Assembly: GCA_947623725.1 (NCBI GenBank)
Contig: CANQHI010000002.1
Location: 7,296 to 71,295 of the forward strand
Source of the DNA: an uncultured Clostridia bacterium
GTDB lineage: Bacteria > Bacillota > Clostridia > TANB77 > CAG-508
DNA length: 64,000 nt
Direction: 5' to 3'
The position numbers were made by a program, and so were the translations under genes. Shown in pieces: positions 6,438-51,106 of this stretch; position 1 is the first letter of the stretch, and every line of letters begins with the position of its first letter. The notes below the pieces were generated by a model. That model saw only the letters and a list, made by a program, of their open reading frames with translations, made no database searches and was not told the DNA's origin.

Positions 6438-6639
6438 TTTGTTTTCCTCCATTCTTTTTTTTAAAGGCTTCAGTTTACAAGGATCTCTATATCATCTATA
6501 TAACGAAGCAAGAGTTTCGTTATATAGTAATATTTAATACAAAGTTACATAATATGTATTTACAATATAATATTAATATGTCTTCAAATCAATTTCAAGT
6601 TTTTTGTAAGAAAATGTAATTAATTTGAAGGAGTTGGAA

Positions 6640-6987
6640 ATGGAAGCATTAGAAGAGAAAATAATAGAAGAATTAAAAATTTTTAAATTTAAAAGGAATT
6701 CTTTAAGTTATGAGTATTTAATAGATGCAATAAAGATTGTATCAAAACAAAAGACAACAATAAAAGATTTTTTACATTATGTTTATAAGCCTATTTCTGA
6801 AAAATACGACACAAAGCCAGACAACGTACAATGGTGTCTTATAAAGTTAATTAATTTAATGTATTATAATACAGAAGAAGAAATTATTGATAATTACTTT
6901 AATATAAATAAAGATGAAAAACTTACAGCAAAACAGTTTATAATAGGAATAGCTAGAAAAATCGACTATAATAAAGATAATATTTAA
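6640..6987 (+). CDS. Standalone Spo0A C-terminal (DNA-binding) domain-like protein
   Basis: Pattern YEYLIDAIKIV ... FLHYVYKPISEKYDTKPDNVQWCLIKLINLMY ... TAKQFIIGIARKI parallels the Spo0A_C helices (GYLYLREAI ... [28 protein letters not shown] ... EFIAMVADKL). ATG at 6640 has a GAAGGAG RBS. The track used an upstream TTG. Confidence 0.55.
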   Translation: MEALEEKIIEELKIFKFKRNSLSYEYLIDAIKIVSKQKTTIKDFLHYVYKPISEKYDTKPDNVQWCLIKLINLMYYNTEEEIIDNYFNINKDEKLTAKQFIIGIARKIDYNKDNI

Positions 6988-16629: not shown

Positions 16630-17484
16630 ATGATTTTCAAAGATTACTATAAAATACTTGGACTTGAATCAAATAAAGTAAGTTTAGATGAAATAAGAGT
16701 AGCATATAGAGAGAAAGCAAAGAAATTTCATCCTGATATAAATGTTGGAAATAGTGAGGCAGAAGCAATTTTTAAAGATGTAAATGAAGCTTATAGAATA
16801 TTAAGTGATGCTTCACAAAGACGAAAATATGACTTTAAATGGAATAAATATATAGGAAGTAAAAAGAAAAAAACAACAACACAAAAAAGAACATTTAAGG
16901 AAATGCTTTTAGATATATTATTTGGAGGAATATCAAAACAAAAAAGTGTGAAAAAAGTTGTTCCAGAGTATGGGGAAGATATTGATACAGAAATAGATAT
17001 TTCTTTAAAAGAAGCATTTTTTGGTGTAAATAAAGTTATAAAGTTAAGAGCTGTAAACGGAAGAGAAACATCATTCTCAGTAAAAGTTCCAGCAGGAGTG
17101 CAAAATCATGATAAAATTAGAATTGTTGGACAAGGTAAAAAAGGAAAAAATGGCGGAAAGAATGGAGATTTACGCGTAATAGTTAATATAAAAGATGGTA
17201 ATAAGTTTAAACTTAATGGAATAGACATATATGCAGAAATTGAAGTGACCGTATACGAAGCAGCACTTGGATGCAGAAAAAATATTAATTTATTTGGAGA
17301 GGAAATTAATATAATTATTCCGAAATGCTGTAGTAGTGGGAAAAAGCTTTGTATACCTCAAAAAGGATATAAAAATGGAAAAGGTAAAAGGGGCAATTTG
17401 TATGTAATTACAAGGATTGTATTGCCTGAAAAATTATCTAAAGAACAAGAGAACCTTTATATAAAATTAAAAAATGTAAGTTAA
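16630..17484 (+). CDS. DnaJ-domain co-chaperone (J domain + DnaJ C-terminal domains, no Zn finger; CbpA-like)
   Basis: J-domain DYYKILGL ... KFHPDIN with HPD. Gly/Lys linker. C-terminal beta-sandwich repeats. Confidence 0.75.
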   Translation: MIFKDYYKILGLESNKVSLDEIRVAYREKAKKFHPDINVGNSEAEAIFKDVNEAYRILSDASQRRKYDFKWNKYIGSKKKKTTTQKRTFKEMLLDILFGGISKQKSVKKVVPEYGEDIDTEIDISLKEAFFGVNKVIKLRAVNGRETSFSVKVPAGVQNHDKIRIVGQGKKGKNGGKNGDLRVIVNIKDGNKFKLNGIDIYAEIEVTVYEAALGCRKNINLFGEEINIIIPKCCSSGKKLCIPQKGYKNGKGKRGNLYVITRIVLPEKLSKEQENLYIKLKNVS

Positions 17485-17600
17485 ATAATTTTAATAGTAA
17501 ATCAAAAAAATAAATCCAGTATTCATAAAGTAAATGTGTGTAAAAGGTCAAGTGAAAAAGTAAATGCAATGTGTGTAAAATACAAAAAAAGCTATATTAG

Positions 17601-17629
17601 TTGACATATTATGTTTAAAGTGCTATAAT
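17601..17629 (+). promoter_or_regulatory. Consensus sigma-A promoter (TTGACA-N17-TATAAT) for the 3-gene operon ending in the T4CP gene
   Basis: TTGACA 17601-17606 and TATAAT 17624-17629 with exact 17-nt spacing. Confidence 0.55.
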
Positions 17630-17677
17630 TATAGATGGTAGGATAACAAAAGAAGAAATAGTAGAAAGAGGTGCGAT

Positions 17678-18196
17678 ATGACTGAAGGATTTCATGGTAA
17701 ATATTTTAGTGTAACTGATCCACAGGGTGTTAATACAGTTATATATAGAATTAATGAAACTGCCAAGGAATTACAGAATAAATATCCCAAATATACTGTT
17801 GAACGCTTAGTTTTCTCTGAAGAAATAAATGGTAATAATAAAAAGAAAACATTTTTTATTGATTACCCACAACCAGAAGGAGAAGATTTAGTAATACTTT
17901 CTTTTGGAGAACAAAAAGTAGTAGTTAATATGGGATTTTTAAAAGATGATAAAGTAAAAATATCTAAAAGACCATTGCCTGTTAAATTTGATACAATTTA
18001 TTCAGAACAAACAATGGAACTTAAAGATTTTAAATATACGCCAAATTTAAGAAGACCAATAACAATTATTGATCCAGAAACTACTGAGGAAATAAAACCA
18101 ATGATTTATTTAGATAAAAATACAAATGAAGTAAGAGGAAGATGTAAATTGAAACCAAATAAATCTTATTTCAGCTTTGAAATAAGAGACAAATAA
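17678..18196 (+). CDS. Hypothetical protein (172 aa), first gene of the T4CP operon
   Basis: RBS AGAAAGAGG. No recognised family. Confidence 0.5.
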   Translation: MTEGFHGKYFSVTDPQGVNTVIYRINETAKELQNKYPKYTVERLVFSEEINGNNKKKTFFIDYPQPEGEDLVILSFGEQKVVVNMGFLKDDKVKISKRPLPVKFDTIYSEQTMELKDFKYTPNLRRPITIIDPETTEEIKPMIYLDKNTNEVRGRCKLKPNKSYFSFEIRDK

Positions 18197-18211
18197 GGAG
18201 GAGTATTAATA

Positions 18212-18487
18212 GTGAAAATATGTTGTACAGAAGTTGGAAATGATTCAAGACTTAATAAATTTATCGGTAATAATCATGGAGAAAAATATGAAGTACAAGA
18301 AAATGAAATGCCTTCAGAAATAGTTCAACTTTCAACCGGTGATTTTAATGAAAATAGTCAAATGCTTAATCAGACACAACTTAGAGAATTAAAAGAAAAA
18401 TTTAATGCTAGAGTAACAAATTATGCATTAAGACAAAAAGAAGAAATAATAAAAGCTGATAAGCAACAAGATGTAACTAGAGATTAA
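18212..18487 (+). CDS. Hypothetical protein (91 aa), GTG start coupled to the upstream gene
   Basis: AAGGAGG 10 nt upstream of GTG. Acidic/Q-rich. Confidence 0.45.
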   Translation: MKICCTEVGNDSRLNKFIGNNHGEKYEVQENEMPSEIVQLSTGDFNENSQMLNQTQLRELKEKFNARVTNYALRQKEEIIKADKQQDVTRD

Positions 18488-18543
18488 AATTATAGGTTTA
18501 GAAGGTTCAAAAAAATTAAAACCAATGAGAAGGTAAAAAATAT

Positions 18544-20580
18544 ATGAAAGATAGTTTTATAGTAATGATAAAAAAGCATATGGTAGCAATAATATTAACT
18601 ATTGTATTTTGGCTATTTGCAGAGATATTTGTAGTAGCCCCATTATCTACAACAATAGTTGATAGTAGTGCTACCGGTGTTTTTGATTTAAGCTACTTTT
18701 TTGAAAATTTTACATTAAATATTGTAAGAGTTGCAGGTGTTGGAAAAATATTTAAAGAAGGTTATATAGGAACCTTTATGTTATGGACAGCAATTTTTAC
18801 AGTATTTTTTGCTATATGCGTTGGAATAGGATTATTTAAAAGTAGAAAAAGAGGAAAATATGACAAAATAGAACATGGTTCAAGTGACTGGAGTTCTGGT
18901 GGAGAACAATATAGAGTACTTAGCAGAAATGCCGGAATAATACTTGCAGAAGAGAATTATTTACCTTTAGATAAATTAGGTAATACCAATGTACTAATAG
19001 TCGGTGGTTCAGGTTCTGGTAAATCATCTGCATATACTATTCCAAATGCTCATCAATGCTTGGGATCTTATGTATTTACAGATCCCAAAGGTGAGATATA
19101 TGATGCAACCGCAGGATACTTAAAATCACAAGGATATGAAATAAAATTATTAAATTTAGTAAATCCAAATAGTAGTGATAGCTACAATCCAATACAACAT
19201 GTTAAATCAGAATTAGATGTAGACGTTATAGCAAATACCATAGTAAAAGGACAAAAATCAGAAGCAGCAGGAGCACAAGATCCATTCTGGGACAATATGT
19301 CAGAGCTATTATTAAAAGCTTTAATATATTATTTAATAGCAGCAGTACCTCCAGAAGAACAAAATTTAGCAAGTTGTGCAGAACTAGTTAGAGCAGCAAA
19401 TACAAAGGGAAATACAAATCTTTTATCAGAATTATTTAATAAATTACCTTATGATCACCCTGCAAGAATGAATTATAAATCAGTTGAAATATCTTCAGAC
19501 AAGACATATAGCTCAATATTAAGTTCATTACAATCAAAATTAGGAAAATTTGATTCAAAGGAAATTGCAAATGTAACATCAACTAATACAATAAGTTTTG
19601 AAGATATTGCTACAAAGAAAACAGCTTTATATGTAGTATCATCAGATACACATACAGCTTACGACTTTTTACTAACAATATTCTTTTCACAGATGATACA
19701 ACAATTATATGATTTTGCAGATAAAAATGGTGGAAAATTGCCACAAAAAACATTTTTTATACTAGATGAGTTTTCTAATATTGGTCAAATTCCAGACTTT
19801 GATAAAAAAATATCAACAAGTAGAAGTAGAGGAATTTCATTTAGTGTTATATTACAAAACTTAGATCAGCTTAAAGCATTATATGAAAAATCTTATGAAA
19901 CAATAATAGGTAACTGTGATACGCATGTATTCTTAGGAAGTAACTCTTATGCAACAGTTGAGTATTTTTCAAAAGAATTAGGAGAAAAAACAATATCACA
20001 TTATAGTAAGTCAATAAATAGAGACAATTATAATGATAGAAAAGGTTATAGTGAATCTGATCAAATAATGGCAAGAGCACTTATGACACCAGATGAATTA
20101 AGAAGATTAGACAATAATAATTGTATAATTTTCGAAAAAGGTTTAAAGCCAATTATGGCCCAAAAATATTATTGGTTTAAAAAGCCTAGAATTACAAAGG
20201 ACTTAAATTCAATTAGAATAGATCATAATGACTTTGATGCAGGAGATAGAGGAGAGTGGAGAAAATTTGATCCATATAACCCATTTACAGGAAAAGCAGT
20301 AGAAGATGAAAAAGAACAATCATTTAAAGTAGAATCACTAGATGACTTATGGACTGATGAAGAACCAAAAGAACAAAATTCAAATGAGGCAAAACCAATA
20401 GAGCAAACAGTTCCAGAAATAAAAAATAATAGTGAAGAATTAGCAAATCAAATAAAAAATGAAATGGAAAATAATAATGCTTATCAAAGTTCAGTGGAAC
20501 AACCAATCCAAGAAGATGAACTAGATATTCAAAAAGAGCTAGAGGCTAAATTTGATGAGTTGTTTGGTCCAATGGAATAA
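18544..20580 (+). CDS. Type IV secretion coupling protein homolog (TraG/TraD/VirD4 family ATPase), orphan
   Basis: N-terminal TM helices. Walker A LIVGGSGSGKSS. Walker B-like FFILDEFSNIG. Acidic C-terminal tail. No relaxase or VirB4 neighbour in the window. Confidence 0.75.
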   Translation: MKDSFIVMIKKHMVAIILTIVFWLFAEIFVVAPLSTTIVDSSATGVFDLSYFFENFTLNIVRVAGVGKIFKEGYIGTFMLWTAIFTVFFAICVGIGLFKSRKRGKYDKIEHGSSDWSSGGEQYRVLSRNAGIILAEENYLPLDKLGNTNVLIVGGSGSGKSSAYTIPNAHQCLGSYVFTDPKGEIYDATAGYLKSQGYEIKLLNLVNPNSSDSYNPIQHVKSELDVDVIANTIVKGQKSEAAGAQDPFWDNMSELLLKALIYYLIAAVPPEEQNLASCAELVRAANTKGNTNLLSELFNKLPYDHPARMNYKSVEISSDKTYSSILSSLQSKLGKFDSKEIANVTSTNTISFEDIATKKTALYVVSSDTHTAYDFLLTIFFSQMIQQLYDFADKNGGKLPQKTFFILDEFSNIGQIPDFDKKISTSRSRGISFSVILQNLDQLKALYEKSYETIIGNCDTHVFLGSNSYATVEYFSKELGEKTISHYSKSINRDNYNDRKGYSESDQIMARALMTPDELRRLDNNNCIIFEKGLKPIMAQKYYWFKKPRITKDLNSIRIDHNDFDAGDRGEWRKFDPYNPFTGKAVEDEKEQSFKVESLDDLWTDEEPKEQNSNEAKPIEQTVPEIKNNSEELANQIKNEMENNNAYQSSVEQPIQEDELDIQKELEAKFDELFGPME

Positions 20581-20933: not shown

Positions 20934-21368
20934 TCAATTCAGTGCATTTTGTATTAATTTTTTTATAATCTCATCAAGTTCTTCTCTTGATTTATATTCA
21001 TATTTATTAATAGATTCATCTTGTCTAATTTTCTTAACATCTTCATCATATTCAACATTTTTGAATATAACTTGTATATATTTAACCTTACTTTTTTTAG
21101 CTATTTCATATTCTTCTAATGTATACTGTCCGATTCTTTTTCCTACTATCATTATAAATATATCAGAAGTAGGAATTTCACTATTATAGTCTGCTTGTTT
21201 TCTTTCAGTTGATACGGTATTATCAGCAAATTCACATTCAAATAAATTAATTCTAACTCCATCATCAATTAGCTTATCTTGCAATTTTCTAATAGTGTTT
21301 CCTATCTGATTTCTTTCATTTTTAAATTCATTAACAGATGATGCAAGGAAAATTTTTAATCTTTTCAT
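20934..21368 (-). CDS. Standalone DUF4062-like domain protein (144 aa)
   Basis: KIFLASSVNEFKNERNQIGNTIRKL ... FECEFAD ... SDIFIMIVGKRIGQYT matches the DUF4062 pattern (VFISS..DL.EER ... mE.F ... cDiyIgIlG.RYG). Its start overlaps the stop of the upstream TPR gene. Confidence 0.55.
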   Translation of the reverse strand: MKRLKIFLASSVNEFKNERNQIGNTIRKLQDKLIDDGVRINLFECEFADNTVSTERKQADYNSEIPTSDIFIMIVGKRIGQYTLEEYEIAKKSKVKYIQVIFKNVEYDEDVKKIRQDESINKYEYKSREELDEIIKKLIQNALN

Positions 21369-24300
21369 TATTCTTTTCCTTTCTTTTTATCATTTTTTTG
21401 CTGAGCTTTAAATTCTGCTTTAAAGTTTTTAGCCATTTTTGCATATTTAGTAGCATCATCAATTAAATCTAATTTTATGCATACTCTAGCTAAATTATAA
21501 TAAGTAAAGGCTAAATCTTGGGCATATTCATGGTTCTTTTCATAAGCTTTTTTTAACATATCAAGAGCTTTTAAATAATAAGATGAAGCATCATCATATT
21601 TTTTATTGTGTCTACATGATTCTCCCATTTCTATATAGTCATAAATTAAGGTAGTTTCATATTTTTCATAATTATCTTTTATTAAATTTTCTTCAAGTTC
21701 TATAGCCATAAAGTAATATGTTTCTGAATCATCATATTTTTTATTATCATAATAAAATTCAGCAACCTTATGATAAGCGTTAGCAAGTGAAGCAGTATAC
21801 TTATCAGTTTCCTTAAATAGTTCTCGCTCTGTACTCATAGATTTTAGATAAAAATATTCTGTATATTTTTTATCCTTTAATTTAGAAAATATTAAAGCAA
21901 TATTATAATATAAATTAGCTAAATTATGTCTATTTACTATTGTTTTCTGCATTGATGGTTTTTCACGAATTTCAAGTGATATTTTATAGTAATCTATTGC
22001 TTTTTCAATTTTATTAGTATTAATATAAACACTAACTAAGCAATCACATATATCAGCATAATCTGATTCATATAATTTTTTATTATCATTGTATAATTTA
22101 GAGCATAATTCAAAAGCACTTAAATAATAATTTTCTGCGTCTTTATACTGTTTTCTTTGGAAGTATGTGTTGGCTAATTGTTTATAAGTATTATATAAAT
22201 AAGTAGCATATTCAGAAAAATCATTATCTAGAAGTTTTTCTAAAACAGCTATTCTATCTTTATAATATGTTTCAACCTTTTCATAGTCTTGCTTTTTGTC
22301 ATACAAATTTATAAGGTCATTATATGTTTTTGCAAGATTTAGTCCATTTTTATTAAAATTGTATTCTGCTAACTTTTTATATAATTCAAATGCTTTTAAA
22401 TAGTACTCCTCAGCTTTATCAATTTGATTCATATTATAGAAATAAAGTGCTCCTAGTCTATTAAAAACAAATGCAATATTATCAGTATAATCATTATTTT
22501 TTGCCTTTTTATCTAAATCTTGTCTTATTTTTAATGATTTTAAATAATAATTTTCAGCTTCTTTATATTTTTTAGTTACTTTATAAAGTTCACCTAAAGT
22601 ACAGTAAGAAGAACTTAAGTCGAATATTGAGTTAGAATTATTTTCATCAGAATATTTTTCTCTAATTTGCATACTTTTTAAAAGATATTTTTCAGCATCT
22701 TCATACTTCTTCATATTATTCAAATATAGAAGACCTAAATCATAGTAACATGAGGCAAGAGTTGGATTAAAATATTTTTCATCTCTAAGATGAATTTTTT
22801 CTATTAGTTCAATTCCATCTAAATAGCTTTTTTCTGCTTCATCATATTTTTTCAAAAGTATATAAATATCGCCTAATAATTGATAATTCCTTGCTAAATC
22901 TGGTTCATATAAACCTTTCATATTAGGAATTAAATTCTTGTAAATACTTATATTATTTACTAAATATTTTTCTGCTTCGTCATAATTTTTTATTTTCTTA
23001 TATAAATTACTGATTTTGTCATTTAATAGAGCTAAAGAATATTCAGAGTCTGATTTTTGTAAGTCCAAAGTATCTTTTAATATATCAATAGCCTTTTTAT
23101 AATATTCTTGATCATTTCCTAACAAATCGCCAAGTGATTCATAATCACCTGCAAGATAAAAATTATATTTTCTTGCATTTTTTTCTGCTAATTTTTTGTC
23201 AACTTCAATTTCCATTGAGCAATATTCTTTTGCTTTTTCTAAATTATTCATTGTATTGTATAGGTTAAAAAAGCAGGCATATAAATTTGAAAAGTAAGTT
23301 TCAATATTTTTATTATCAAATTCTTCCACATAGTAATCAAGTTGTTCCTGAGCTTTTTTTAAATATTTTTCTGAAGTCTCATAATCTTTTAATTTTATAT
23401 AAAATGCTCCAAAACTTTTGTAAATTTGTATAAGACTTATTTGATTGCTTTCTGTTTTATTATTAGCAAGTTTTTCATATAATTTTAATGCCTTGTTATA
23501 ATAAAATTGAGTTTTGTCATATTTATATATTTTTAAATAAAAACGACCAAGGGTTTGATAAGAACTTGCTAATCCGACTCATATAAGCTTGAGAATTACT
23601 TTCATATAATTCTTCCATTAGTTTCGTATCTTTTAAAAGATAATCTTCAGCTATATCATATTTTGATATGTTAAGGGCATATTTTCCAAGCTGATGATAA
23701 GAAGCAGATAAAAGTTCTTTTTTATCTTCATCTTTAGGATATTTTTTTACTAAGTCAATTCTTATATCTGTTGATTTTCTATAATATTTTAATGCATTAT
23801 GAAAATCATTATATTTTTCAAGTAAAAGTGCATAGTTATTATATGAATTAGATAATACAACTCTATAATAATCGTCACTGTCTTCAGTTAATATTTTTTC
23901 ATCTATTTCTATTGCTTTCAAGAAACAGTCTTTAGCTAGTTCAAATTTTGCATCTTCAAAGTATAAATATGCTAGTCCTAGATTATTATAAGCAATAGAA
24001 AGATTTTTTTGATACAATTTCGGATTAATTTCAACTAATTTTTTGTCAATTTCAATTAATTCTAGATATATTTTTTCAGCTTCTTCATATTTACCAATAT
24101 TATAATAAATTATTCCTAAGTGGTTATAAATACTTGATAAATTATCATAATATATTCCTTCGTCAAATTCTTTTTCATAATACTCTTTAGTGGAACTTAA
24201 ATTTAAATATTCTTTATATTTGTTAGCAAATTTTATTGCTTTATCATATTGGTTTTGGTTATTCAAATATAAACTATATTTATATAAACTGCGTCTATTT

Positions 24301-25310
24301 AGATTTCCTTGTTCATCAAGCTTTACAGCTTCCTCAAAAGCTTCTTCAATTTCTTTATATCTATTGTTATTATTTATATCCAATTTTAATATATCAATTC
24401 TTTGCATAAGCTCGTTTACAATTGTTTGCATTTCTTCTTTTTGCTTCTCTTGAATTTTCAATAATTTATCACCATCTGATTTTAAATCTTCAAAAGATAA
24501 AGCATTTTTTGCTTCTTCTAAATCACCATCATCTAAGCATTTTTTTGCATATATTTGTCTTTTAGAAAGCTTGCCGTCCATTGATGAAGAAATAAAGCTA
24601 CTTTCTAGTTCAATAATATTATTCTCAATTTGGTATATATTATCTTTTATTTTTGATCTCTTATCATTTATATCAGAAAATTTTTCAAAAGCTTTTTCAT
24701 CATCAGGATTTTTTCTAATAATATCTTTATATTCCCAATATTCTTGGTCTAGTTTATTATACTGTTCCTTTAAGTTATTTAAGTCTTTGTTGTTGAATAT
24801 AAATGGAATATTATCTAAAGTCATTATTTCGTCTTTATTAATACATAACTTGTTATCTATAACCTCAATTTTACCAGCTTCTAAGCCTAAAGATTTTAAT
24901 TGCAAAATTATATTTAACTTGATTGTATCAATATTTTCATACTGATTATAATAATGACCTAATTCTTCATCTAAATGCTTCATAAAATTAACAACTGACT
25001 CATCTTGATTTTCGCTTTTCTTGATATATGTTGTAATTTTAGGATTACGATTATTCTTGAAAAACTCATAAGCAGTATTAAATTCTTGAACTATCTTTTC
25101 ATCTGCAGTATGTGAAAATAGTATAAAAAACAATTCACTTTTCTTTATATCATCAGTTAAAACTTCAGAATCATCATCTGTGATTAGTCTAAAATAAATA
25201 TCATAATTCTCATATTTGTCATTTAAATCGCGTATAAAATTTCCAATTTCATCTTTTTCGTTTTGTAGTTCTTTTTCATCAACAGCTAAGAAAATATTAA
25301 TTTTTTTCAT
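21368..25310 (-). pseudogene. DUF4062-like domain + coiled-coil + long TPR-repeat protein (~1,300 aa), split into two ORFs (23523-25310 and 21368-23329) by a frameshift near 23579-23590
   Basis: The N-terminus MKKINIFLAVDEKELQNEKDEIGNFIRDL is paralogous to the 144-aa neighbour. The TPR reading frame continues without a stop from 23578 down through the GTG at 23329 (VGLASSYQTLGRFYLKIYKYDKTQFYYNKALKLYEKL...), so the 653-aa ORF is the downstream part of the same gene. Confidence 0.6.
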
Positions 25311-25406
25311 AACTTCATATCCTCATATAATATGTTAATTTTAATAAACATATTCTTATTTTATATTTAGGTTTTTTAAAGGCTACCTATAAACCTTATA
25401 ATTAAC

Positions 25407-26351
25407 TTATTTCAAGTGTTCTGGAATTCCCATTACATGCATAAAATTATTAAAACTTTCCTCATCTAATTCTTTTTTTACATCATCAACAGCTAAGTTA
25501 AATTTATTTAAAAAATTATTATAATCGCTTTTTTTCAAAAGTCTTTTTAAAATAATTATAATAGATAAAATGTCATTTTCACCTGATTCGTAGTGTTCTC
25601 CATTTTTAACAATTCCTAAATCATCATGAAAAAAAGACTTTTTATGAATTGGATAAGAAATACTTAAATTCAAATTAAATAGCATATTGCTATGTGCAGC
25701 GATGTTTCTAACGACATTTAGCATTTTCAAAAAGGTAAGTAAATCTTTATAATTAATTTGACAAAGATTAGATACTTCTTTTTTGTCCTCGATTTTCATT
25801 AAACTATAGAATTTTATAATGTTTCCAAAAGTAATTAAAGTAGTAAACATCCATAGAGGAATTGTATTATATAATTCTTTACATTCCTTTATATCCTTGT
25901 AATTATCAATATTTCTATTTAAGTTATCATCTAAATTTTTCATGAATTCTGTATAAAGTTGTTTAGTTTTATAATTAACACTAAAATTTTCTTCATTTAG
26001 ATAATTGTAAACACCATATTTCTTAGAAAAAGTATTTGCTATGTATGATTTTATATTAGTTTCAATTATAGAAATATAATTAAACATAATATTTCTAAGT
26101 TCTCTGTCAAATTTGTAAACAGCATAAATTTCTTCAAAATAAGTGTCCGTAGTACATGTCTCAATTCCATTTTTTTTAGAATTTTTTATATCAATAAATA
26201 TATCTTTATAACCAGTAATTAAGTTATAATAGTTTTCTCTTAAAAGGACTTCTTTAGCTTCTTTTTCATTTTTTATTATAATGTTACTAGACTTTATTAT
26301 CTCTATTTGTTCATTTATATCTTTGTATTCTAAATTCATATAAAATTTCAT
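25407..26351 (-). CDS. Abi_2 family abortive-infection protein (AbiD/AbiF-like)
   Basis: N-terminal EQIEIIKSSNIIIKNEKEAKEVLLRENYYNLITGYKDIF matches the Abi_2 consensus (L...NYYRL..Y...F). C-terminal VRNIAAHSNMLFN matches RNxxAH. Confidence 0.7.
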   Translation of the reverse strand: MKFYMNLEYKDINEQIEIIKSSNIIIKNEKEAKEVLLRENYYNLITGYKDIFIDIKNSKKNGIETCTTDTYFEEIYAVYKFDRELRNIMFNYISIIETNIKSYIANTFSKKYGVYNYLNEENFSVNYKTKQLYTEFMKNLDDNLNRNIDNYKDIKECKELYNTIPLWMFTTLITFGNIIKFYSLMKIEDKKEVSNLCQINYKDLLTFLKMLNVVRNIAAHSNMLFNLNLSISYPIHKKSFFHDDLGIVKNGEHYESGENDILSIIIILKRLLKKSDYNNFLNKFNLAVDDVKKELDEESFNNFMHVMGIPEHLK

Positions 26352-26464
26352 TCCTTTTTTCGTACATAATTATAAAAGTATTATTCTTTATTTTTCTATT
26401 TTGTATCCTAGTTTTATCAGTACTTTTAAAGATTCTTGTAAAGTATTTCTATATTAATATGGGC

Positions 26465-28270
26465 TTATACATTTTTATCTTCCTTATAAATATATGGTAT
26501 ATTTTTAATAATTTTTATATCTGAGTCTTTATAATTTTTATTAAGCTTATGTTCAATTTCATCTAGTTTTTCAAAATCAGCTATAGCAGGGTGTAATTTT
26601 GCTAAAATATGTTTTGCATCATTTATTTTTTCACGATATTTCTCAACATCAGCAATTGATGCACTTTGATATCCATCACTTCTCATATATGCTATCCATC
26701 TATTGTGCTCATTTTTAACTAATTCATTAAAAATTTTATCGTCTTGAAGTTTTTTCTCGAAGTTATTTAAATCAGTTCCAATATCACCAGTATATTCATC
26801 TTTTAATACTGAATAAATTTTGTATTTTATATGAGTTGCAGTTGCTCTTGAAGATTTTACATTATATTCTGTTTCATAATATTTTTCTAAATTAACATCA
26901 TCAGCATTGTATATTAAATGTACTCTTTGAGACATGTGCTCTATTTTTGAATCAATAATTGGATATTTGTAGTAAATATCATTAATGCTTCCAAAAGCAT
27001 TTAAGTTGTATTGTGTTTTTTCGTCAGCCTTTAAATAATTTATTTGCATGCTTTTTTCTTCATCTTTTATCCAAATATTAATAATTGGCTTATTATTGTA
27101 ATTTTCTTTATCTTGTAACAAGAAATATTTTCTTAAATAAATAGCTTCTTTTATATTTATTTCATCATTTTGAAGAGTTACAACTACATAATTAATATTT
27201 TTTAATTTATTTAATTCATCTAATGCTTTTTGAGAATTAATATCTGCTTCAATAAAGTTATAGTCGTAGTTTGCAATTAATTCAGGACATTCTTTTGTAA
27301 GTAATTCTTTTATGTGATTTGCTCTAATATCAATAATGTTTATTTTTAGCTTATATCCAATAATCTGACCACACCATGTAATTATCTTTAAAAATTCTCT
27401 TCCAACTTTGCCACAACCTACTATTAAAACAGAAATCTCATTGTTTATAGCATTTAGATAAATAGGCTTATCTTGCAATAACTGTATAATAGTTCTTTCA
27501 ACTTCATTTACAATTTCTAACTGAATATTGCCTTTATCAGTAGAATCTAAGATAATTCTAGAAACTTCATCATTTAAGATACTATAAATTTTTATCTTTT
27601 TATTTAATGATTTATTTTTTTCAATTAATCGTAAAGTTAAAGTTAAATTTTCATTTTCTATTTCATTTACTAAATAAATAGTAACAGTATTGCTTTTTAT
27701 CTTTTTTAAATTTATATTTTCTATTAATGAATAAAATTTAGTAATATTAAGTCCTTTTAAGTCATAATTTTTTGCATCATCTTTTTCACAATTTGCAAAA
27801 ATAATAGTTTTATCTTTATTATATAAGTTTTTAGCTATAGTTACAGATTTTTCATTTAATTCTGAAAAAATTAATATATCTTTTTTTCTAGTAAAATACA
27901 ATTTGAATTTGGTTGTAAAATCACCAATAAGAGTTAATAAAAAAGATACTGTAAGTAATGGCATTAATAATGTTAATAGATAAATTATACCAATATAAAT
28001 TGTATCAAATATATTTATGATTTGAAAATTATTAAGTATTCCTAAATTTTCATTTAAAATGATAGTTTGTGCAGAATATAAAATAGAATTTACTAGTTTT
28101 CCCATAAAATCAGGCTGTGTACTTAGTGGGAAAATTAATATAGCAAGTGAAACTGTCATTCCAAGTATTGATATAGGTATCCATTTTTTTGTATCATTTA
28201 TATTTTTTTTCGCTTTTATAACTGTAAAAATTAATATAATTATAGATAAAAGTAAAAATATATTATTCAT
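26465..28270 (-). CDS. Membrane protein: N-terminal 4-TM domain plus tandem Rossmann/RCK (TrkA-N)-like domains (CASTOR/POLLUX-like channel architecture)
   Basis: Four hydrophobic helices in the first ~120 aa. The GxGxxG-type loop VLIVGCGKVGREF begins a Rossmann domain. 601 aa. Confidence 0.45.
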   Translation of the reverse strand: MNNIFLLLSIIILIFTVIKAKKNINDTKKWIPISILGMTVSLAILIFPLSTQPDFMGKLVNSILYSAQTIILNENLGILNNFQIINIFDTIYIGIIYLLTLLMPLLTVSFLLTLIGDFTTKFKLYFTRKKDILIFSELNEKSVTIAKNLYNKDKTIIFANCEKDDAKNYDLKGLNITKFYSLIENINLKKIKSNTVTIYLVNEIENENLTLTLRLIEKNKSLNKKIKIYSILNDEVSRIILDSTDKGNIQLEIVNEVERTIIQLLQDKPIYLNAINNEISVLIVGCGKVGREFLKIITWCGQIIGYKLKINIIDIRANHIKELLTKECPELIANYDYNFIEADINSQKALDELNKLKNINYVVVTLQNDEINIKEAIYLRKYFLLQDKENYNNKPIINIWIKDEEKSMQINYLKADEKTQYNLNAFGSINDIYYKYPIIDSKIEHMSQRVHLIYNADDVNLEKYYETEYNVKSSRATATHIKYKIYSVLKDEYTGDIGTDLNNFEKKLQDDKIFNELVKNEHNRWIAYMRSDGYQSASIADVEKYREKINDAKHILAKLHPAIADFEKLDEIEHKLNKNYKDSDIKIIKNIPYIYKEDKNV

Positions 28271-28509: not shown

Positions 28510-29547
28510 ATGAAATTTGTACATTTAGCAGATATACATTTTGACACTCCATTTAAGACAATATCAGATAGAGCAGATTTAGGAAAGATAAGAAGATTAG
28601 AACAAAGATCTGCGTTTAAAAAAGTAATAGAATTTATTAAAGAAAATAAAATAGAATATTTATTTATTAGTGGAGATTTTTTTGAGCAAGATTATGTTAG
28701 AAAATCTACAATTATATATATAAATAATTTATTTAATGAAATAAATAATACAAAAATATATATTGCACCAGGAAATCATGATCCATATATGGCAAATTCA
28801 TATTATAAGACTTTTGATTGGGCTGATAATGTAAAGATATTCACAGAAAAAGCAGAAAAAGTGGAAAATCCTGATGCAAATATCTATGGTTATGGGTTTA
28901 ATAATTATGAAATGAATGACAATCAATTAGAGGATATAGAAATTGATGATAAAAATAAAATAAATATATTAATTACTCATGGAACAGTTATATCAGGAAA
29001 TGAAATAAGTGGTATATATAATCCAATTAGTAAAAATAAATTAGAAGAAAAAGGATTTGACTATGTAGCATTAGGTCATATACATAAAAGAGATAAATTT
29101 TATCCAGGTTCGCTAATTTCAATGGGGTTTGATGAGATAGGAGAACATGGTTTTATATATGGAGAAATAGTAAATAACAAATTGAGTACTGAATTTATAA
29201 AAGCAGATGAAAGAGAATTTATAGAAATTGATGTTGATGTTTCAGATATATATTCAGAAGAAGATTTAATTGAAAAGTTAAATTTAATTGATACAGGTAA
29301 TAATTTATATGAAATTAATTTAATTGGGTATAGAAATTTTATTATTAATATTGATTTAAAATTAATACAAAAAAATATAATTAAAATAAAAGATTATACA
29401 GAAGTAAAAATAGAAATAAAAGAAAATAATAATACATTAAAAGGAATTAGTTTAAAAAAATTAAATGAAAAATTAAAAAATAATGAAATTAATAAAAAAG
29501 AATATGATGAAATTTTAGAAATTATTTTAAAAATATTTAATAATTGA
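28510..29547 (+). CDS. Mre11/SbcD-family metallophosphoesterase nuclease (YhaO/SbcF-like)
   Basis: MKFVHLADIHFD, GDFF, GNHD and GHIH phosphoesterase motifs. Confidence 0.75.
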   Translation: MKFVHLADIHFDTPFKTISDRADLGKIRRLEQRSAFKKVIEFIKENKIEYLFISGDFFEQDYVRKSTIIYINNLFNEINNTKIYIAPGNHDPYMANSYYKTFDWADNVKIFTEKAEKVENPDANIYGYGFNNYEMNDNQLEDIEIDDKNKINILITHGTVISGNEISGIYNPISKNKLEEKGFDYVALGHIHKRDKFYPGSLISMGFDEIGEHGFIYGEIVNNKLSTEFIKADEREFIEIDVDVSDIYSEEDLIEKLNLIDTGNNLYEINLIGYRNFIINIDLKLIQKNIIKIKDYTEVKIEIKENNNTLKGISLKKLNEKLKNNEINKKEYDEILEIILKIFNN

Positions 29548-30534
29548 ATGATTAAATAAAAAGCTATAATATATAAAATAAAAAATTAAAATAAATATTA
29601 AATTAAAAAACAAAAAAAGAAAAAAATAAAATAAAAAATATAATATATAAAATATAAAAATTAAAATAAAATTAAAAATAAAAATTAAAATTATATTAAA
29701 AATAAAAATATAAAATATAAGAAATCAAAAAATAAGATAAAAAATAAATATAATTTATAAATAAAAAATATAAAAAGTAAAAAAGAAAATGAAAAAATAA
29801 ATTAATAAAAAGAAAATATATAAAAAATAAAAAGTATAAAAATAAAATGATAAAAATTAACTGAAAAAAATATTTTATTAAGAAGAAAATATACAAAAAT
29901 ATCTAAATTTAATTTTAAATTAATAATTTCTTGATAAAAAATGTCAAAAATAATAATGTATCTGTTATGAAAGAAATTGACAAAAAATCGTCATTTTAAG
30001 ATGAAAAAAATAAAGAGTAAGATTAAATTATATAATTTAAGAATAACAAACGTATAATCAAAAAGACAAATTAAAAGAAAAGCTAAGATAAAAAAAGCTA
30101 AACTTGAAAAAAACTAGGGATAAAAATAAAAAATGACATATAATTTAAAAAATATAAGCTATAAAATTGAAAAGAAAAATCTATAAAAAACACAACCTAA
30201 TAGACAAAAAATATTAAAAATTTTTTCAAAAAAAGAGAAACTTGTCAAAAAAACAAACAAAACAAGCCTGAAGAGCTAAAAATTCAAAAAGAAATATTTG
30301 GTAATAGAGCAAGCGAAAAAAATTGATGATAAAAAACAAAAATAAAATTATCTATATTATTTTAATAATTAAATAAGAAATAAATTATTAACACAAAAAG
30401 TTTATAAAAGATAAAAATAATTTTGAAAAAAACAATACAAAATAAAAAAATTTTTATCAATAAATTATAAAATTTTTATATAAAAAATTAATAAATGTAT
30501 TATAAAATTTTAACAAAAATAAAAATTAAAAATT
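29548..30534 (+). repeat. ~1-kb non-coding A-rich low-complexity tract (plus strand almost T-depleted) separating the SbcD-like and SbcC-like genes
   Basis: Runs of AAAAATAAAA/ATATAAAA-type words. Stops in all frames. No regular CRISPR-like periodicity. Confidence 0.6.
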
Positions 30535-30546
30535 GGAGGATAAAAT

Positions 30547-32346
30547 TTGAAAATAAAAAATTTAAAAATTAATGGTTATGGAAAATTAAAAAATAAAAAT
30601 ATAAATTTTGAAAAAATAAATATTATTTATGGAAAAAATGAATCAGGTAAATCTACAATATTAAATTTTATTATAAATATTTTATATAATATTTCAAAAA
30701 ATAAAAATGGAAAATCGTTATCTGACTATGATAAATATTTACCTTGGAATGAAAACGAATTTTCTGGAAAAATTTCTTATATATTAGATAATAATAAAAA
30801 ATATCAAGTTTTTAGAAATTTTAATAAAAAAGATACAGAAGTATATGATGAAAATGGGATAAATATTTCAAATGAATATAATATAGATAAAAAATTAGGA
30901 AATTTATATTTTTCAGACCAAGTTAAAGTTGATAAGGATACATTATTATCAACGGTGGTTGCAGCACAGAATGAAACAAGAATAGATGCTAATATGCAAA
31001 ATATTTTAATTCAAAAAGTGGCTAACTTAGCTGAAAGTGGAGATGAAGAAGTATCATATAAAAAAGCAGTTAATATATTAGGAAAAATATTACTTAATGA
31101 GGTTGGTACAAATAAAAGTCAAGACAGACCAATTAATATTACTAAAGAAAATATATTTAATTATGAAAAAGAATTAGAAGATATTAAAAACATAAGAAAT
31201 ATAAAAAGTGAAATAGAAGAAAAAAATAAAAAATTAAATAAAATGTTAATTAGTCATGAAAAAAATAAAGAAATAATAGAAAAAATAATCAATATTTTAA
31301 ATAATAAAAAATTAAAAAGTGAAAAAATAAAAATAAAAGAAAATATTTATAATGAAACTAAAAATAAAATAGAAAAAATAAGAAATAATAAAAAAGATCA
31401 TAAAAATAATAAAAAAAATTATATTATTTTAATAATATTGATAATTATAAATATTTTAAATTTCATTTTTATAAAAAATAAAATAATTAATTTAATGTTA
31501 TTTGCATTAATTCCGATTTTTATTTTAATATTATTTATAAAAATGATTAATAATAAAAAATATTTTTTAAAAAATGTTGATTTGCCAGTAAAAACTTTAG
31601 AAGGTAATAATAATGAATTAAAAATAGAAATAAATAAATTAAAAGAAGAATTAAATAATGAATTTTTTGATGAAAAAGAAGAATTAATTAGAATATATGG
31701 AAAAGAAATTATTAATTTACTTGAAGATGAAGATATTGAAAAAAGACTACATGAGACTAATAAAGAGATTGAAAGAATAGAGCTTGAATTACATAAACAA
31801 AAATTGGACATGAGTAATATAGAACCTAAACTTGAAAAATTAGCAGAATTGGAGGAAAAGCTAGAATTAGAAGAGTCAAATTTAGAAAAATTAGAAAATA
31901 GAGCTAACATAATTAATTTAACTAAAGATATAATAGAAGAATCTTATATTGAAATGAAAAATAATGTTACTCCAAAATTTAATATAAACTTATCTAAAAA
32001 TATAGAAAAATTATCAAAAGGAAAGTATAAAAATATTATTATAAATGATGATATTTTAGTTGAGCTAGAAAATGGACAACATATTTCTATAGAAAGGTTA
32101 AGTACTGGAACGATAGAGCAAATATATTTAGCATTAAGACTTTCTGTAATTGATGAAATTTCTACGGAGAAATTACCTATATTTTTAGATGAAACTTTTG
32201 CTTTTTATGATGATGAAAGATTAGAAGAGGCATTAAAGTTCTTATTAGATATAGAAAATCAAGTTATTATATTTACTTGTACGAATAGAGAAAAAAATAT
32301 ATTAGAAAAATTAAACGCTAACTTTAATTATATTGATATAACTTGA
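30547..32346 (+). CDS. SbcC/Rad50-like ABC ATPase with central transmembrane hairpin (YhaN/SbcE-like), TTG start
   Basis: N-terminal Walker A GKNESGKST. C-terminal signature LSTGTIEQIYLALRL and Walker B IFLDETFAFYDD. Short coiled-coils flank two hydrophobic 18-20 aa segments (YIILIILIIINILNFIFI / LMLFALIPIFILILFI). GGAGGA RBS 6 nt before TTG. Confidence 0.7.
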   Translation: MKIKNLKINGYGKLKNKNINFEKINIIYGKNESGKSTILNFIINILYNISKNKNGKSLSDYDKYLPWNENEFSGKISYILDNNKKYQVFRNFNKKDTEVYDENGINISNEYNIDKKLGNLYFSDQVKVDKDTLLSTVVAAQNETRIDANMQNILIQKVANLAESGDEEVSYKKAVNILGKILLNEVGTNKSQDRPINITKENIFNYEKELEDIKNIRNIKSEIEEKNKKLNKMLISHEKNKEIIEKIINILNNKKLKSEKIKIKENIYNETKNKIEKIRNNKKDHKNNKKNYIILIILIIINILNFIFIKNKIINLMLFALIPIFILILFIKMINNKKYFLKNVDLPVKTLEGNNNELKIEINKLKEELNNEFFDEKEELIRIYGKEIINLLEDEDIEKRLHETNKEIERIELELHKQKLDMSNIEPKLEKLAELEEKLELEESNLEKLENRANIINLTKDIIEESYIEMKNNVTPKFNINLSKNIEKLSKGKYKNIIINDDILVELENGQHISIERLSTGTIEQIYLALRLSVIDEISTEKLPIFLDETFAFYDDERLEEALKFLLDIENQVIIFTCTNREKNILEKLNANFNYIDIT

Positions 32347-34554: not shown

Positions 34555-36832
34555 ATGCAAAATTTATTAGAAGAACTTAATCCAAAACAAAGAGAGGCAG
34601 TAGAAACTACAGAAGGACCATGCCTTGTTATAGCCGGTGCAGGAAGTGGAAAAACAAAGGTATTAACATACAAAATTGCATATTTAATGCAAGAAAAAAA
34701 TATAAAACCATGGAATATACTTGCAATTACATTTACAAATAAAGCAGCTGACGAAATGAGAGATAGAGCAGAAGCTTTAATTGGAGAAAATATAAACGAT
34801 TTATGGCTTGGAACATTTCACTCAATATGTGTTAGAATTCTTAGAAAATTCATTGATAGACTTGGATTTGATACATCTTTTGCAATCTTTGACACATCAG
34901 ACCAAAAGACTTTAATAAAGAATTGTTTAAAAGAATTAAACGTTGATACAAAATTATTTACAGAAAAGTCAGTTTTAAATGAAATAAGTAATGCTAAAAA
35001 TGAAATGATGGAACCAAAAGCGTACTTGGAGGAATATAGCAATGACTACAGGAAGGGCATTATAGCAAAGGTTTATTCATTGTATCAACAAAGATTAAAG
35101 CAGAATAATGCGATTGATTTTGATGATATTATCAATTTTACAATAAAAATTTTAATGGAAAATCCAGATGTATTAGATTATTATTCTAGTAAATTTAGAT
35201 ATGTTTTAGTTGATGAATATCAGGATACAAATAAGGCACAGTTTACATTAGTAACATTACTTGCATCAAAGTATGGAAATGTTACGGTTGTTGGTGATAA
35301 TGACCAGGGAATTTACAGTTTCCGTCGGAGCAGATATTTCAAATATTTTAAACTTTGAAAAAGACTATCCTGGTACAAAAATAATAAAATTAGAGCAAAA
35401 TTATCGTTGCACAGGAAACATATTAAAAACAGCAAATGCAGTAATTAAGCACAATGAAAATAAATATGATAAAAAACTTTGGACAGAAAATGAAGAAGGA
35501 ACATTACCATATGTTTTTTGTGGAGAAGATGAATATTCTGAATCTAACTTTATAATAGAACAAATTAATAGATTGAGAAGAGAAGAATATTATAAATATT
35601 CTGATTTTGCAATACTTTATAGAATGAACTCACAATCAAGAGCATTAGAAGATAAGCTTAGAATTGAAAATATTCCATACAAAATAATAGGTGGATTAAA
35701 ATTCTATGAAAGAAAAGAAATAAAGGATACTATTGCATATTTAAGGTTACTAGCTAATCAATCTGATAACTTATCATTAGAAAGAATTATAAATGAACCA
35801 AAAAGAGGAGTAGGAAAAACAAGTATTGATAATGTTAGAGAAATTGCAGAAAACAATGGAATATCAATGTATGAAGTTATAAAAAGAGCAGACGAATTTG
35901 TACCTAGAATTTATAATAATACAAGAGATTTTATTAATGCCATTGAAGAATTAAAAGATAAAGAATGTTCGATAGCAGATTTAATTACAGAAGTATTAAG
36001 TAAAACAGGATATACAAAAAGCCTAGAAAATGAAAATACTGTTGAAGCAGAAAGTAGACTTGAAAATATAGAAGAATTTTTAACAGTTGCTAATGAGTTT
36101 GAAAAAGAGGCAGTAGATAAATCTTTAACCGAATTTTTAAATGGAATATCATTAGCGAGTGATACTGATAATCTATCGGACACAGAAGATGTAGTCACTT
36201 TGATGACCTTACATAGTGCTAAAGGATTAGAGTATCCAGTTATATTTTTAGTAGGATTAGAAGAAGGAATTTTCCCAGGGCATCAATCAATGGATAATCC
36301 AGCAGACATTGAGGAAGAGAGAAGACTTTTTTATGTAGGAATTACTAGAGCAAAACAAAATTTGTTTTTAACTTTTGCTAGAAGAAGGACAATATTTGGT
36401 TCTACTAGTTATAATCCACCATCAAGATTCTTAAAAGAAATTCCAAAAGATATACTTGATGGATATGAAGAAGCGATGGAGAAACAGGAAGAGCCAGATG
36501 AGTTTGAAGATACAAATTATTCATGGAGCTATGGAAGAGGATATGATGTAGCACAAAGTACTGGAATAAATACAGGAAGCTTTAAAAGTAGTGAAGTTAA
36601 GTTTGGAAGATCAGCAGAGGGATTTTTAGCATCACTTCAGGCAAAAAAATCTACACAAGTAGATTTAAGTAAGTATAAAGTTGGACAAAAAGTATTTCAT
36701 AAAAAATTTGGAGAAGGAGTTATTTCAAAGTTAGAAGAAGAAGGAGAAGATATTAAAGTTGATATAGATTTCGAAAAAGTGGGACATAAGAGATTGATGG
36801 CAAAATTTGCGGGACTTGAAATATTGCAATAA
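34555..36832 (+). CDS. pcrA: ATP-dependent DNA helicase PcrA/UvrD, reading frame interrupted by a 1-nt insertion at ~35324-35328 (two ORFs: 34555-35358 and 35261-36832)
   Basis: Walker A AGAGSGKTKVL. Motif III reads GDNDQGIYSFRRS... in one frame and continues GADISNIL in the next (expected GIYSFRGADI). All UvrD motifs are present across both pieces. Confidence 0.8.
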
Positions 36833-51035: not shown

Positions 51036-51106
51036 AAAATGCAAAGGAAAAAAAGAATGAAAAGAATAGTGACGAATAAAAAAATACCAAAGAAAGGAGT
51101 CCAAAT

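Follow-up and report, generated by a model that had tools for sequence, protein, structure and literature searches.

VirD4/TraG-type coupling ATPases (type IV coupling proteins, T4CPs) are regarded as parts of conjugation and effector-secretion systems, and their lone copies are usually dismissed as debris of integrative conjugative elements (ICEs). The tail of the F-plasmid TraD binds TraM, and the C-terminal extension of Legionella DotL binds IcmS-IcmW-LvgA/DotN. Streptomyces TraB, SpoIIIE and FtsK are stand-alone translocases that move DNA without a type IV secretion system (T4SS) and set the precedent that one membrane-anchored hexameric pump of the FtsK-HerA superfamily can work without a secretion channel, in some cases as the product of a chromosomal housekeeping gene. 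The conflict systems surveyed by Kaur et al. (2020) unite Hsp70, DnaJ-fused beta-sandwich proteins, TPR proteins and FtsK-type ATPases; VirD4 and TraG ATPases have no occurrences in that survey, and the FtsK domains of its systems are predicted to be inactive (PMC7159879). Here, we describe a T4CP gene from a 64,000-nt stretch of contig CANQHI010000002.1 (GCA_947623725.1) of an uncultured Clostridia bacterium (the window, to whose positions all coordinates below refer unless a locus is named). We put the probability at roughly 0.5 that it belongs to a domesticated, vertically inherited four-gene module, made up of a J-domain protein (J-protein), a 172-aa protein (p172), a 91-aa protein (pX) and the VirD4-type ATPase, which operates outside any conjugative element. 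The components of this locus are:

16630–17484, + strand: J-domain co-chaperone, CbpA-like (PF00226 and PF01556, no zinc finger), the fourth conserved member of the module
17601–17629, + strand: consensus sigma-70-type promoter, TTGACA-N17-TATAAT with an extended -10 TG
17678–18196, + strand: p172, a soluble protein with two predicted tandem beta-sandwich domains, 172 aa, ATG start; candidate adaptor
18212–18487, + strand: pX, a small fast-evolving protein, 91 aa, GTG start
18544–20580, + strand: VirD4/TraG-type T4CP, 678 aa, with hidden Markov model (HMM) scores above cutoffs
18580–18837, + strand: N-terminal membrane anchor of the T4CP, two predicted transmembrane (TM) helices
19003–19026, + strand: Walker A motif GGSGSGKS, aa 154–161, read from the sequence
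19765–19773, + strand: Walker B motif DEF, aa 408–410, read from the sequence
20284–20523, + strand: hypervariable acidic low-complexity linker of the T4CP, aa 581–660, delimited by column identity and composition
20524–20568, + strand: near-invariant C-terminal peptide of the T4CP, DIQKELEAKFDELFG, aa 661–675; putative p172 docking motif

The 678-aa protein is a true member of the T4CP family, with a membrane anchor and conserved Walker motifs. A sequence-only reading of this stretch, made without database searches, had proposed such an architecture (two N-terminal TM helices, GGSGSGKS, DEF and an acidic C-terminal tail) and had named the lack of a T4CP profile match as grounds for abandoning it. 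All these elements are present, and the protein matches PF02534 with 276 bits (cutoff 20.1), PF12696 with 126 bits, PF10412 with 100 bits and the NCBIfam model NF045973 (‘VirD4-like, CD1115 family’) with 445 bits (cutoff 250), the FtsK_SpoIIIE family being absent among its Pfam matches. The alignment to PF10412 (TrwB_AAD_bind) spans aa 147–529 and does not separately resolve the all-alpha domain; the sole solved relative by sequence is Helicobacter pylori Cag5/VirD4 (E = 3e-14). The anchor is predicted from hydrophobic segments at about aa 13–35 and 75–98 (peaks of 2.7 and 2.3 in a 19-aa Kyte-Doolittle window), and acidic residues outnumber basic ones by 28 to 9 in the last 98 aa.

Scanning a collection with a single genome for each species recovered at least 497 confirmed matches to the module, 80 of which supplied the detailed locus counts. 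These 80 loci come from assemblies labelled Clostridia, Clostridiales, Clostridium sp. or Bacillota, almost all of them uncultured metagenome-assembled genomes; Clostridium sp. CAG:508 is among the carriers, CAG-508 being a family within the uncultured gut order TANB77 (PMC11680825). The ATPase core of the T4CP shows column identities of 0.7–0.98, and both Walker motifs are intact, with at least 90% conservation among 47 module T4CPs. Between the core and the linker lies a second conserved patch (aa 561–580). The membrane-anchor region is poorly conserved (0.3–0.45) and the linker still less so (0.13–0.38). The T4CPs of the core clade are 57–84% identical to each other and 40–54% identical to those of more distant modules. 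In one of these (L090, 8778–10728), the T4CP was called as a 148-aa TM open reading frame (ORF) and a 511-aa ATPase ORF, and it is matched by tblastn as two separate pieces.

The closest described relatives are the CD1115-family T4CPs of plasmids (C. botulinum pCDC3875, a Cohnella herbarum plasmid and C. difficile pHSJD-312), which belong to the same Pfam and NCBIfam families and share the TM anchor, Walker A and B, the TrwB_AAD and TraG-D_C regions and an acidic C-terminal extension. They are encoded, however, on mobile replicons beside a relaxase, PcfB/DUF3801, VirB6, PrgI and VirB4, whereas the module T4CP is chromosomal, without these companions; its neighbors are instead the J-protein, p172 and pX, and it bears a clade-specific tail peptide, of a type absent from the C-termini of three plasmid T4CPs. 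Module and plasmid proteins are only 31–39% identical (the best plasmid matches at most 37.5%), and the module T4CPs form a distinct clade. One of the plasmid proteins, from C. botulinum (L095, 6890–8761), ends in ...RDELEKLFESD..., with a faint likeness to the ELEAKFDELFG of the module tail, and the motif may have had an ancestor in the tails of conjugative T4CPs.

The orphan status of this T4CP, already noted from the sequence, was upheld by every search. Pfam scans of essentially all window ORFs of at least 80 aa recovered no relaxase, VirB4, VirB6, integrase or other conjugation protein, and tblastn of the window with VirB4, VirB6, PrgI, relaxase, MobC, PcfB and DUF3801 queries taken from two plasmid modules returned nothing. 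Extending the tblastn search to 92 module-bearing sequences (1.27 Mb, reaching about 8–10 kb to the left and right of a module) likewise yielded no homologs of VirB4, VirB6, PrgI, relaxase or PcfB. The complete adjacent conjugation module that would have made the locus the edge of an ordinary ICE is thus absent from the window and from these flanks. By comparison, two plasmid relatives of the T4CP have a relaxase with MobC, PcfB or DUF3801, VirB6, PrgI and VirB4 within 5 kb. No p172 match was found in 72,556 plasmids or in 50,697 phage genomes. Near the module, there is no integrase, no attachment or repeat boundary and no tRNA junction, the nearest tRNAs being unrelated and 9–13 kb away; its GC composition is that of the neighboring genes, in a window with a GC content of about 26% throughout.

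The module is a core chromosomal, vertically inherited unit whose T4CP and p172 are under stronger constraint than the adjacent housekeeping genes. Three T4CP homologs of 63–69% identity share the neighborhood murF-ddl-(HD)-DnaJ-like-[~172 aa]-[~91–104 aa]-T4CP; in loci L002 and L005, prfB follows the T4CP directly and pcrA lies farther downstream, while L001 has fatty-acid synthesis genes instead. Across the 80 loci, the order J-protein, p172, small ORF and T4CP on one strand is invariant, with the T4CP present in 77 and the J-protein in 78, all five misses falling at contig ends. The site itself (murF-ddl-HD on one side and sbcDC-prfB-pcrA on the other) is syntenic in 80/80 sampled species genomes. 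The trio of p172, pX and T4CP recognized by the sequence-only reading is therefore real, and its synteny holds across species as that reading had suggested checking; the conserved unit nevertheless comprises four genes, the J-protein gene upstream having been missed.

Distance comparisons tell the same story. Mantel correlations with the combined murF, ddl and ypeB distances are 0.74 for the T4CP, 0.90 for p172 and 0.89 for the J-protein, against 0.72–0.81 among the housekeeping genes themselves, and J-protein and T4CP distances correlate at r = 0.81. Mean pairwise distances are 0.26 for the T4CP and 0.24 for p172 compared to 0.35–0.40 for murF, ddl and ypeB. These Mantel values exclude loci with a different murF/ddl pair (~30% identity); an initial test that included them gave r = 0.31 because it was confounded by such pairs. 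In eight loci (L002, L014, L044, L045, L050, L074, L078 and L079), MurF and Ddl are only about 29–36% identical to those of the window, while the module genes are still 60–79% identical, and murF-ddl is inverted in some of them; these sequences suggest that some lineages have exchanged the pair as a unit. The association is also retained over deep divergence: downstream of p172 genes whose products retain 41%, 34% and 29% identity, a small ORF and a T4CP are again found. The J-protein gene is adjacent in two of these three distant modules, namely L090, which lies in another chromosomal neighborhood, and L092, where it is divergently oriented.

Neither p172 nor pX has a name in public databases, and both return zero matches in Pfam, NCBIfam, PADLOC and PHROGs, in keeping with their description as unknown in the sequence-only reading. 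We found 3509 homologs of p172, the best 120 at 70–97% identity; an exhaustive profile search resolves the family into 292 clusters at 50% identity, making it a small one. Structure prediction, which the sequence-only reading had recommended for the small proteins, gave for p172 a confident AlphaFold2 model with 14 strands in two tandem beta-sandwiches (predicted local distance difference test score, pLDDT, of 87; predicted template-modeling score, pTM, of 0.82). It did not bring an informative structural neighbor: Foldseek searches of the model against PDB and BFVD returned only generic Ig-like matches at TM-scores of about 0.25–0.3. p172 represents a new domain family without a known homolog.

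The T4CP tail offers a clue to what p172 might bind. The DIQKELEAKFDELFG peptide is present in 47/47 module T4CPs, in 116 of the 120 nearest homologs and in all three distant modules. Profile searches also recovered p172 as an internal domain in 29 large proteins, and in 15 of these a near-identical peptide (e.g., NADEELEAKFEELFGPN and NVDDELDAKFEEIFGRE) lies 55–75 aa upstream of the p172 domain; a sixteenth case, in P0350, falls inside an over-extended envelope. When the upstream segments were shuffled 200 times, the mean number of peptide matches was 0.45 and the maximum 3, as against the 15 observed. Because the peptide recurs upstream of the p172 domain in these fusions beyond the shuffled expectation, the pattern argues, in the manner of Rosetta-stone fusions, for a joint function of peptide and p172 domain, most simply through binding of one to the other. 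In the AlphaFold2 model of one natural fusion (P0356), the peptide is predicted to be an ordered helix (block pLDDT 87) between segments with pLDDT below 50, which fits docking and falls short of proof. The fusions further contain a second amphipathic helix between the motif and the p172 domain. We considered whether the linker between the two corresponds to pX and rejected this, the best E-value of the pX HMM being 0.04. One fusion with TIR, motif, p172 and Sel1 regions (P0323; L089, 8001–9494) is found in a genome of 42% GC, flanked by a MatE transporter and a pst-phoU operon, and neither a T4CP nor a J-protein is encoded close by; since it stands alone in this way, the p172 cassette probably also functions independently of the module.

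In almost every locus, an ORF of 83–173 aa occupies the pX position between p172 and the T4CP, and 75 of 83 such ORFs form one BLASTP-linked component. For the pX of the window, tblastn detects no counterpart even among the closest genomes. What is conserved is a basic C-terminal helix of the N-x-R-R-[ILM]-T-x-S-A-L-x-R-K type, the remainder being variable. At one locus (L088, 598–1514), p172 is 45 aa longer at its C-terminus and a TM-rich ORF, not a separate pX, comes directly after it, which hints that pX may have been fused or lost in some lineages. The J-protein matches PF00226 (76 bits) and PF01556 (123 bits) and has a visible HPD motif; its Pfam matches do not include the zinc finger DnaJ_CXXCXGXG. 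It gives full-length, sub-threshold matches to PRK14299 and to the CbpA model PRK10266, the latter at 163 bits against a cutoff of 403; its architecture resembles that of E. coli CbpA, of which it is not an equivalog.

The promoter upstream of p172, which the sequence-only reading had described as consensus, is a 12/12 match and the sole one within 16.5–21.5 kb. Of 84 orthologous loci, 68 have a strict TTGACA-N16-18-TATAAT at the corresponding intergenic position. The ORF positions, the GTG start of pX and its strong ribosome-binding site (AGGAGG, 7–8 nt upstream) are likewise as that reading had them. Its claim of a single operon holds for the tight spacing: because p172 and pX are separated by 15 nt and pX and the T4CP by 56 nt, and no intrinsic terminator was found between the three genes, we infer their cotranscription. 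Just 5′ of the promoter, at 17530–17580, are two copies of GTAAATG(N0-4)TGTGTAAAA, unseen in the shorter intergenic regions of other loci, perhaps an operator particular to this lineage, perhaps a match by chance.

If the module is domesticated as we suppose, its T4CP would be a membrane-anchored, probably hexameric, NTP-driven motor, as in other T4CPs. Its flexible acidic arm is predicted to present the amphipathic peptide ELEAKFDELFG, which would plug into p172, and p172 could then serve as an adaptor, regulator or gate, comparable to TraM on the F TraD tail or IcmSW-LvgA on the DotL extension. The J-protein would recruit DnaK/Hsp70 to unfold or remodel a client, and pX might be a specificity or regulatory subunit. 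The role of the assembled machine at the cytoplasmic membrane would be to recruit a macromolecular client, which it would translocate or remodel using ATP. Because of the J-protein/Hsp70 link, we lean, by analogy, toward a protein or nucleoprotein client rather than naked DNA. The likeness to TraD-TraM and DotL-IcmSW would lie in a flexible arm whose short end element recruits a soluble adaptor. In distinction to those adaptors, p172 is predicted to fold as two all-beta sandwiches in tandem and shows no detectable similarity to TraM or IcmSW, its binding is deduced here from co-occurrence, and no relaxosome or effector repertoire is known for the module. With respect to FtsK, SpoIIIE and TraB, the module T4CP matches VirD4/TraG profiles instead, no gamma domain or clt/KOPS-like target is known for it, and those translocases have no counterpart to the J-protein partnership. 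The p172 pair is also built into TIR-Sel1 and kinase-Sel1 proteins of many gut Firmicutes, and we tentatively advance a broader scheme that is possible rather than probable: ELEAKFDELFG and p172 would be a hitherto unrecognized, portable ‘plug-and-socket’ pair that tethers or gates diverse outputs and that, in one large uncultured lineage of Clostridia, captured a conjugation-derived VirD4 motor and an Hsp70 co-chaperone to give a new T4SS-independent, vertically inherited membrane machine, either a housekeeping translocase or remodeler or a chromosomally fixed immune sensor of incoming DNA-protein complexes.

Several points weigh against a domesticated module working on its own. The conjugation-gene searches span the window and the flanks, and a T4SS may be encoded elsewhere in the carrier genomes. 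The proposed binding of the T4CP tail to p172 comes from the co-occurrence of domain and motif. The J-protein upstream of the distant module L093 is unconfirmed, and the carriers are nearly all uncultured. Furthermore, pX and the T4CP linker evolve fast, as arms-race genes typically do, and the partners fused to p172 (Sel1 in 24/29, TIR in 13/29 and kinase domains in 2/29) are typical of conflict and immune proteins.

Among the rival explanations is a decaying remnant of an integrated conjugative or mobilizable element, or the edge of an ICE; the remnant of a mobilizable element was one of the two options of the sequence-only reading. This rival has in its favor a family of conjugal-transfer T4CPs and the lack of partner genes nearby. 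We regard it as effectively refuted, with a probability close to nil: the locus occupies the same chromosomal site in all 80 sampled species and has co-diverged with its hosts, its motifs are intact, T4CP and p172 are more conserved than their housekeeping neighbors, p172 is missing from plasmids and phages, and the matching composition and the lack of an integrase, tRNA junction or repeat boundary are equally unlike an integrative conjugative or mobilizable element. The other option, a repurposed DNA or protein translocase, gains support from the same vertical inheritance, intact motifs and absence of conjugation partners close by. A different possibility is that the protein is a genuine coupling protein for a T4SS or DNA-transfer channel encoded elsewhere on the chromosome, with p172, pX and the J-protein as substrate recruiters. 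All T4CP hallmarks are kept, the curated CD1115-family cutoff is exceeded, tail-binding adaptors are a known route of T4CP substrate recruitment (F TraD-TraM, DotL-IcmSW) and the inspected part of each genome is small. We nonetheless hold it to be unlikely, as none of the 92 module-bearing sequences has VirB4, VirB6, PrgI, a relaxase or PcfB, which canonical family members have within 5 kb. About 500 species, many of them apparently having small genomes, would moreover all have to retain the channel, with none reported for the clade, and the module clade is distant in sequence from the conjugative T4CPs.

The module could also be a core-genome immune or conflict system, in which the peptide-p172 cassette is regulatory and the T4CP takes the effector or sensor position, sensing or expelling incoming conjugative or phage DNA-protein complexes or opening a lethal membrane channel, with pX as a fast-evolving decoy or specificity factor and J-protein/Hsp70 setting the activation threshold. 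The TIR, kinase and Sel1 partners of the large p172 proteins, the presence of the T4CP-tail peptide ahead of p172 in those same proteins and the rapid evolution of pX and of the linker would all fit such a role. So would the resemblance to the systems surveyed by Kaur et al. (PMC7159879), which share with the module and the p172 family an NTPase, a chaperone co-factor, a beta-sandwich, repeats and swappable effectors (TIR, kinases). A defense-like insert with DUF4062/TPR and AbiD proteins lies directly 3′ of the module in the window; it is, however, specific to this genome. The T4CP has a weak PADLOC match to mad8 of MADS (31 bits), a link we discarded, no other MADS gene being present; the MADS preprint gives no fold for mad8. 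We find the immune reading rather doubtful, since known defense systems are patchy and mobile, whereas this locus is fixed, syntenic and vertically inherited, with T4CP and p172 evolving more slowly than murF and ddl. Its distribution among the sampled loci is not of the sporadic island type, and none of its components scores meaningfully against a defense system of PADLOC-DB v2. The consensus promoter would suggest constitutive high expression, and the module ATPase motifs are intact, unlike the FtsK-type domains of the published conflict systems.

A domesticated module therefore remains our preferred explanation, and what is known about it is the ATPase family, while its genetic context, partners, tail motif and evolutionary mode are new; a search of the literature turned up no account of a VirD4-J-protein module on a chromosome, of p172 as a domain or of the tail peptide. 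A large, uncultured lineage of gut bacteria here carries a VirD4-type motor as a conserved core gene, one that evolves more slowly than cell-wall enzymes and is linked to an Hsp70 co-chaperone as well as to a new domain also found in TIR and kinase proteins. If the proposal is true, it would provide a clear example of a conjugation ATPase exapted to serve the cell and would add a new peptide-domain interaction module, testable with a 15-residue peptide. It would also entail an annotation rule against the label ‘conjugal transfer proteins’ in hundreds of species, and estimates of mobile elements in gut metagenomes would at present be inflated.

The wider neighborhood contains core genes upstream of the module, namely the signal recognition particle RNA, dnaX, ybaB, recR, ypeB, murF, ddl and the genes for an HD protein and the J-domain protein. 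Downstream, between the T4CP and an SbcD-like gene, lies the 7.5-kb defense-like block (20934–28270, - strand), which encodes a 144-aa DUF4062 (TIR-like) protein, TPR proteins of 653 and 595 aa, AbiD (PADLOC, 181 bits) and an uncharacterized 601-aa protein. The start of the DUF4062 protein abuts the stop of the 653-aa TPR protein at 21368, and the 595-aa TPR protein has a similar N-terminus; a KFxELF-type motif is found in none of the block proteins. Beyond the block are a Metallophos and AAA_23 pair, prfB, a ZIP transporter, pcrA, mecA, radC, mreBCD and PBP2. We had entertained the Metallophos and AAA_23 genes as part of a defense island and dropped this, a similarly sized pair preceding prfB in most loci, where ORFs of about 345–365 aa and then about 600–660 aa follow the T4CP on the same strand. 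By ORF size and weak sub-threshold NCBIfam matches of the SbcD/Rad50 type, they are likely a core SbcD/SbcC-like pair. In the closest relative (L008), which is without the block, a 345-aa ORF of the size of the SbcD-like protein of the window starts about 110 nt after the T4CP; if the pair is indeed core SbcD/SbcC, only 20.9–28.3 kb would be a genome-specific insertion.

Between the SbcD-like and SbcC-like genes is a 1-kb gap (29548–30546) without an ORF of at least 80 aa, the corresponding distance in relatives being 0–550 nt. The surrounding 29000–32000 has an extremely low GC content of 13–16%, and the SbcC-like ORF starts with TTG; the gap may be a degraded or misassembled coiled-coil region. 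The pcrA gene (34555–36832) is split into overlapping ORFs of 267 and 523 aa, compared to a single gene of 771–772 aa in L002 and L005, reflecting either a frameshift or pseudogene or an assembly error. A 120-aa protein at 6625–6987 consists of the C-terminal (DNA-binding) domain of Spo0A alone, without the receiver domain. Toward the end of the window, three very large ORFs of 1558, 546 and 1409 aa (46359–57210) carry DUF11, SdrD_B and CarboxypepD_reg domains. The next ORF (57243–64000) exceeds 2252 aa, runs off the window and, with its GH94 and glucoamylase domains, resembles a cyclic beta-1,2-glucan synthase/phosphorylase.

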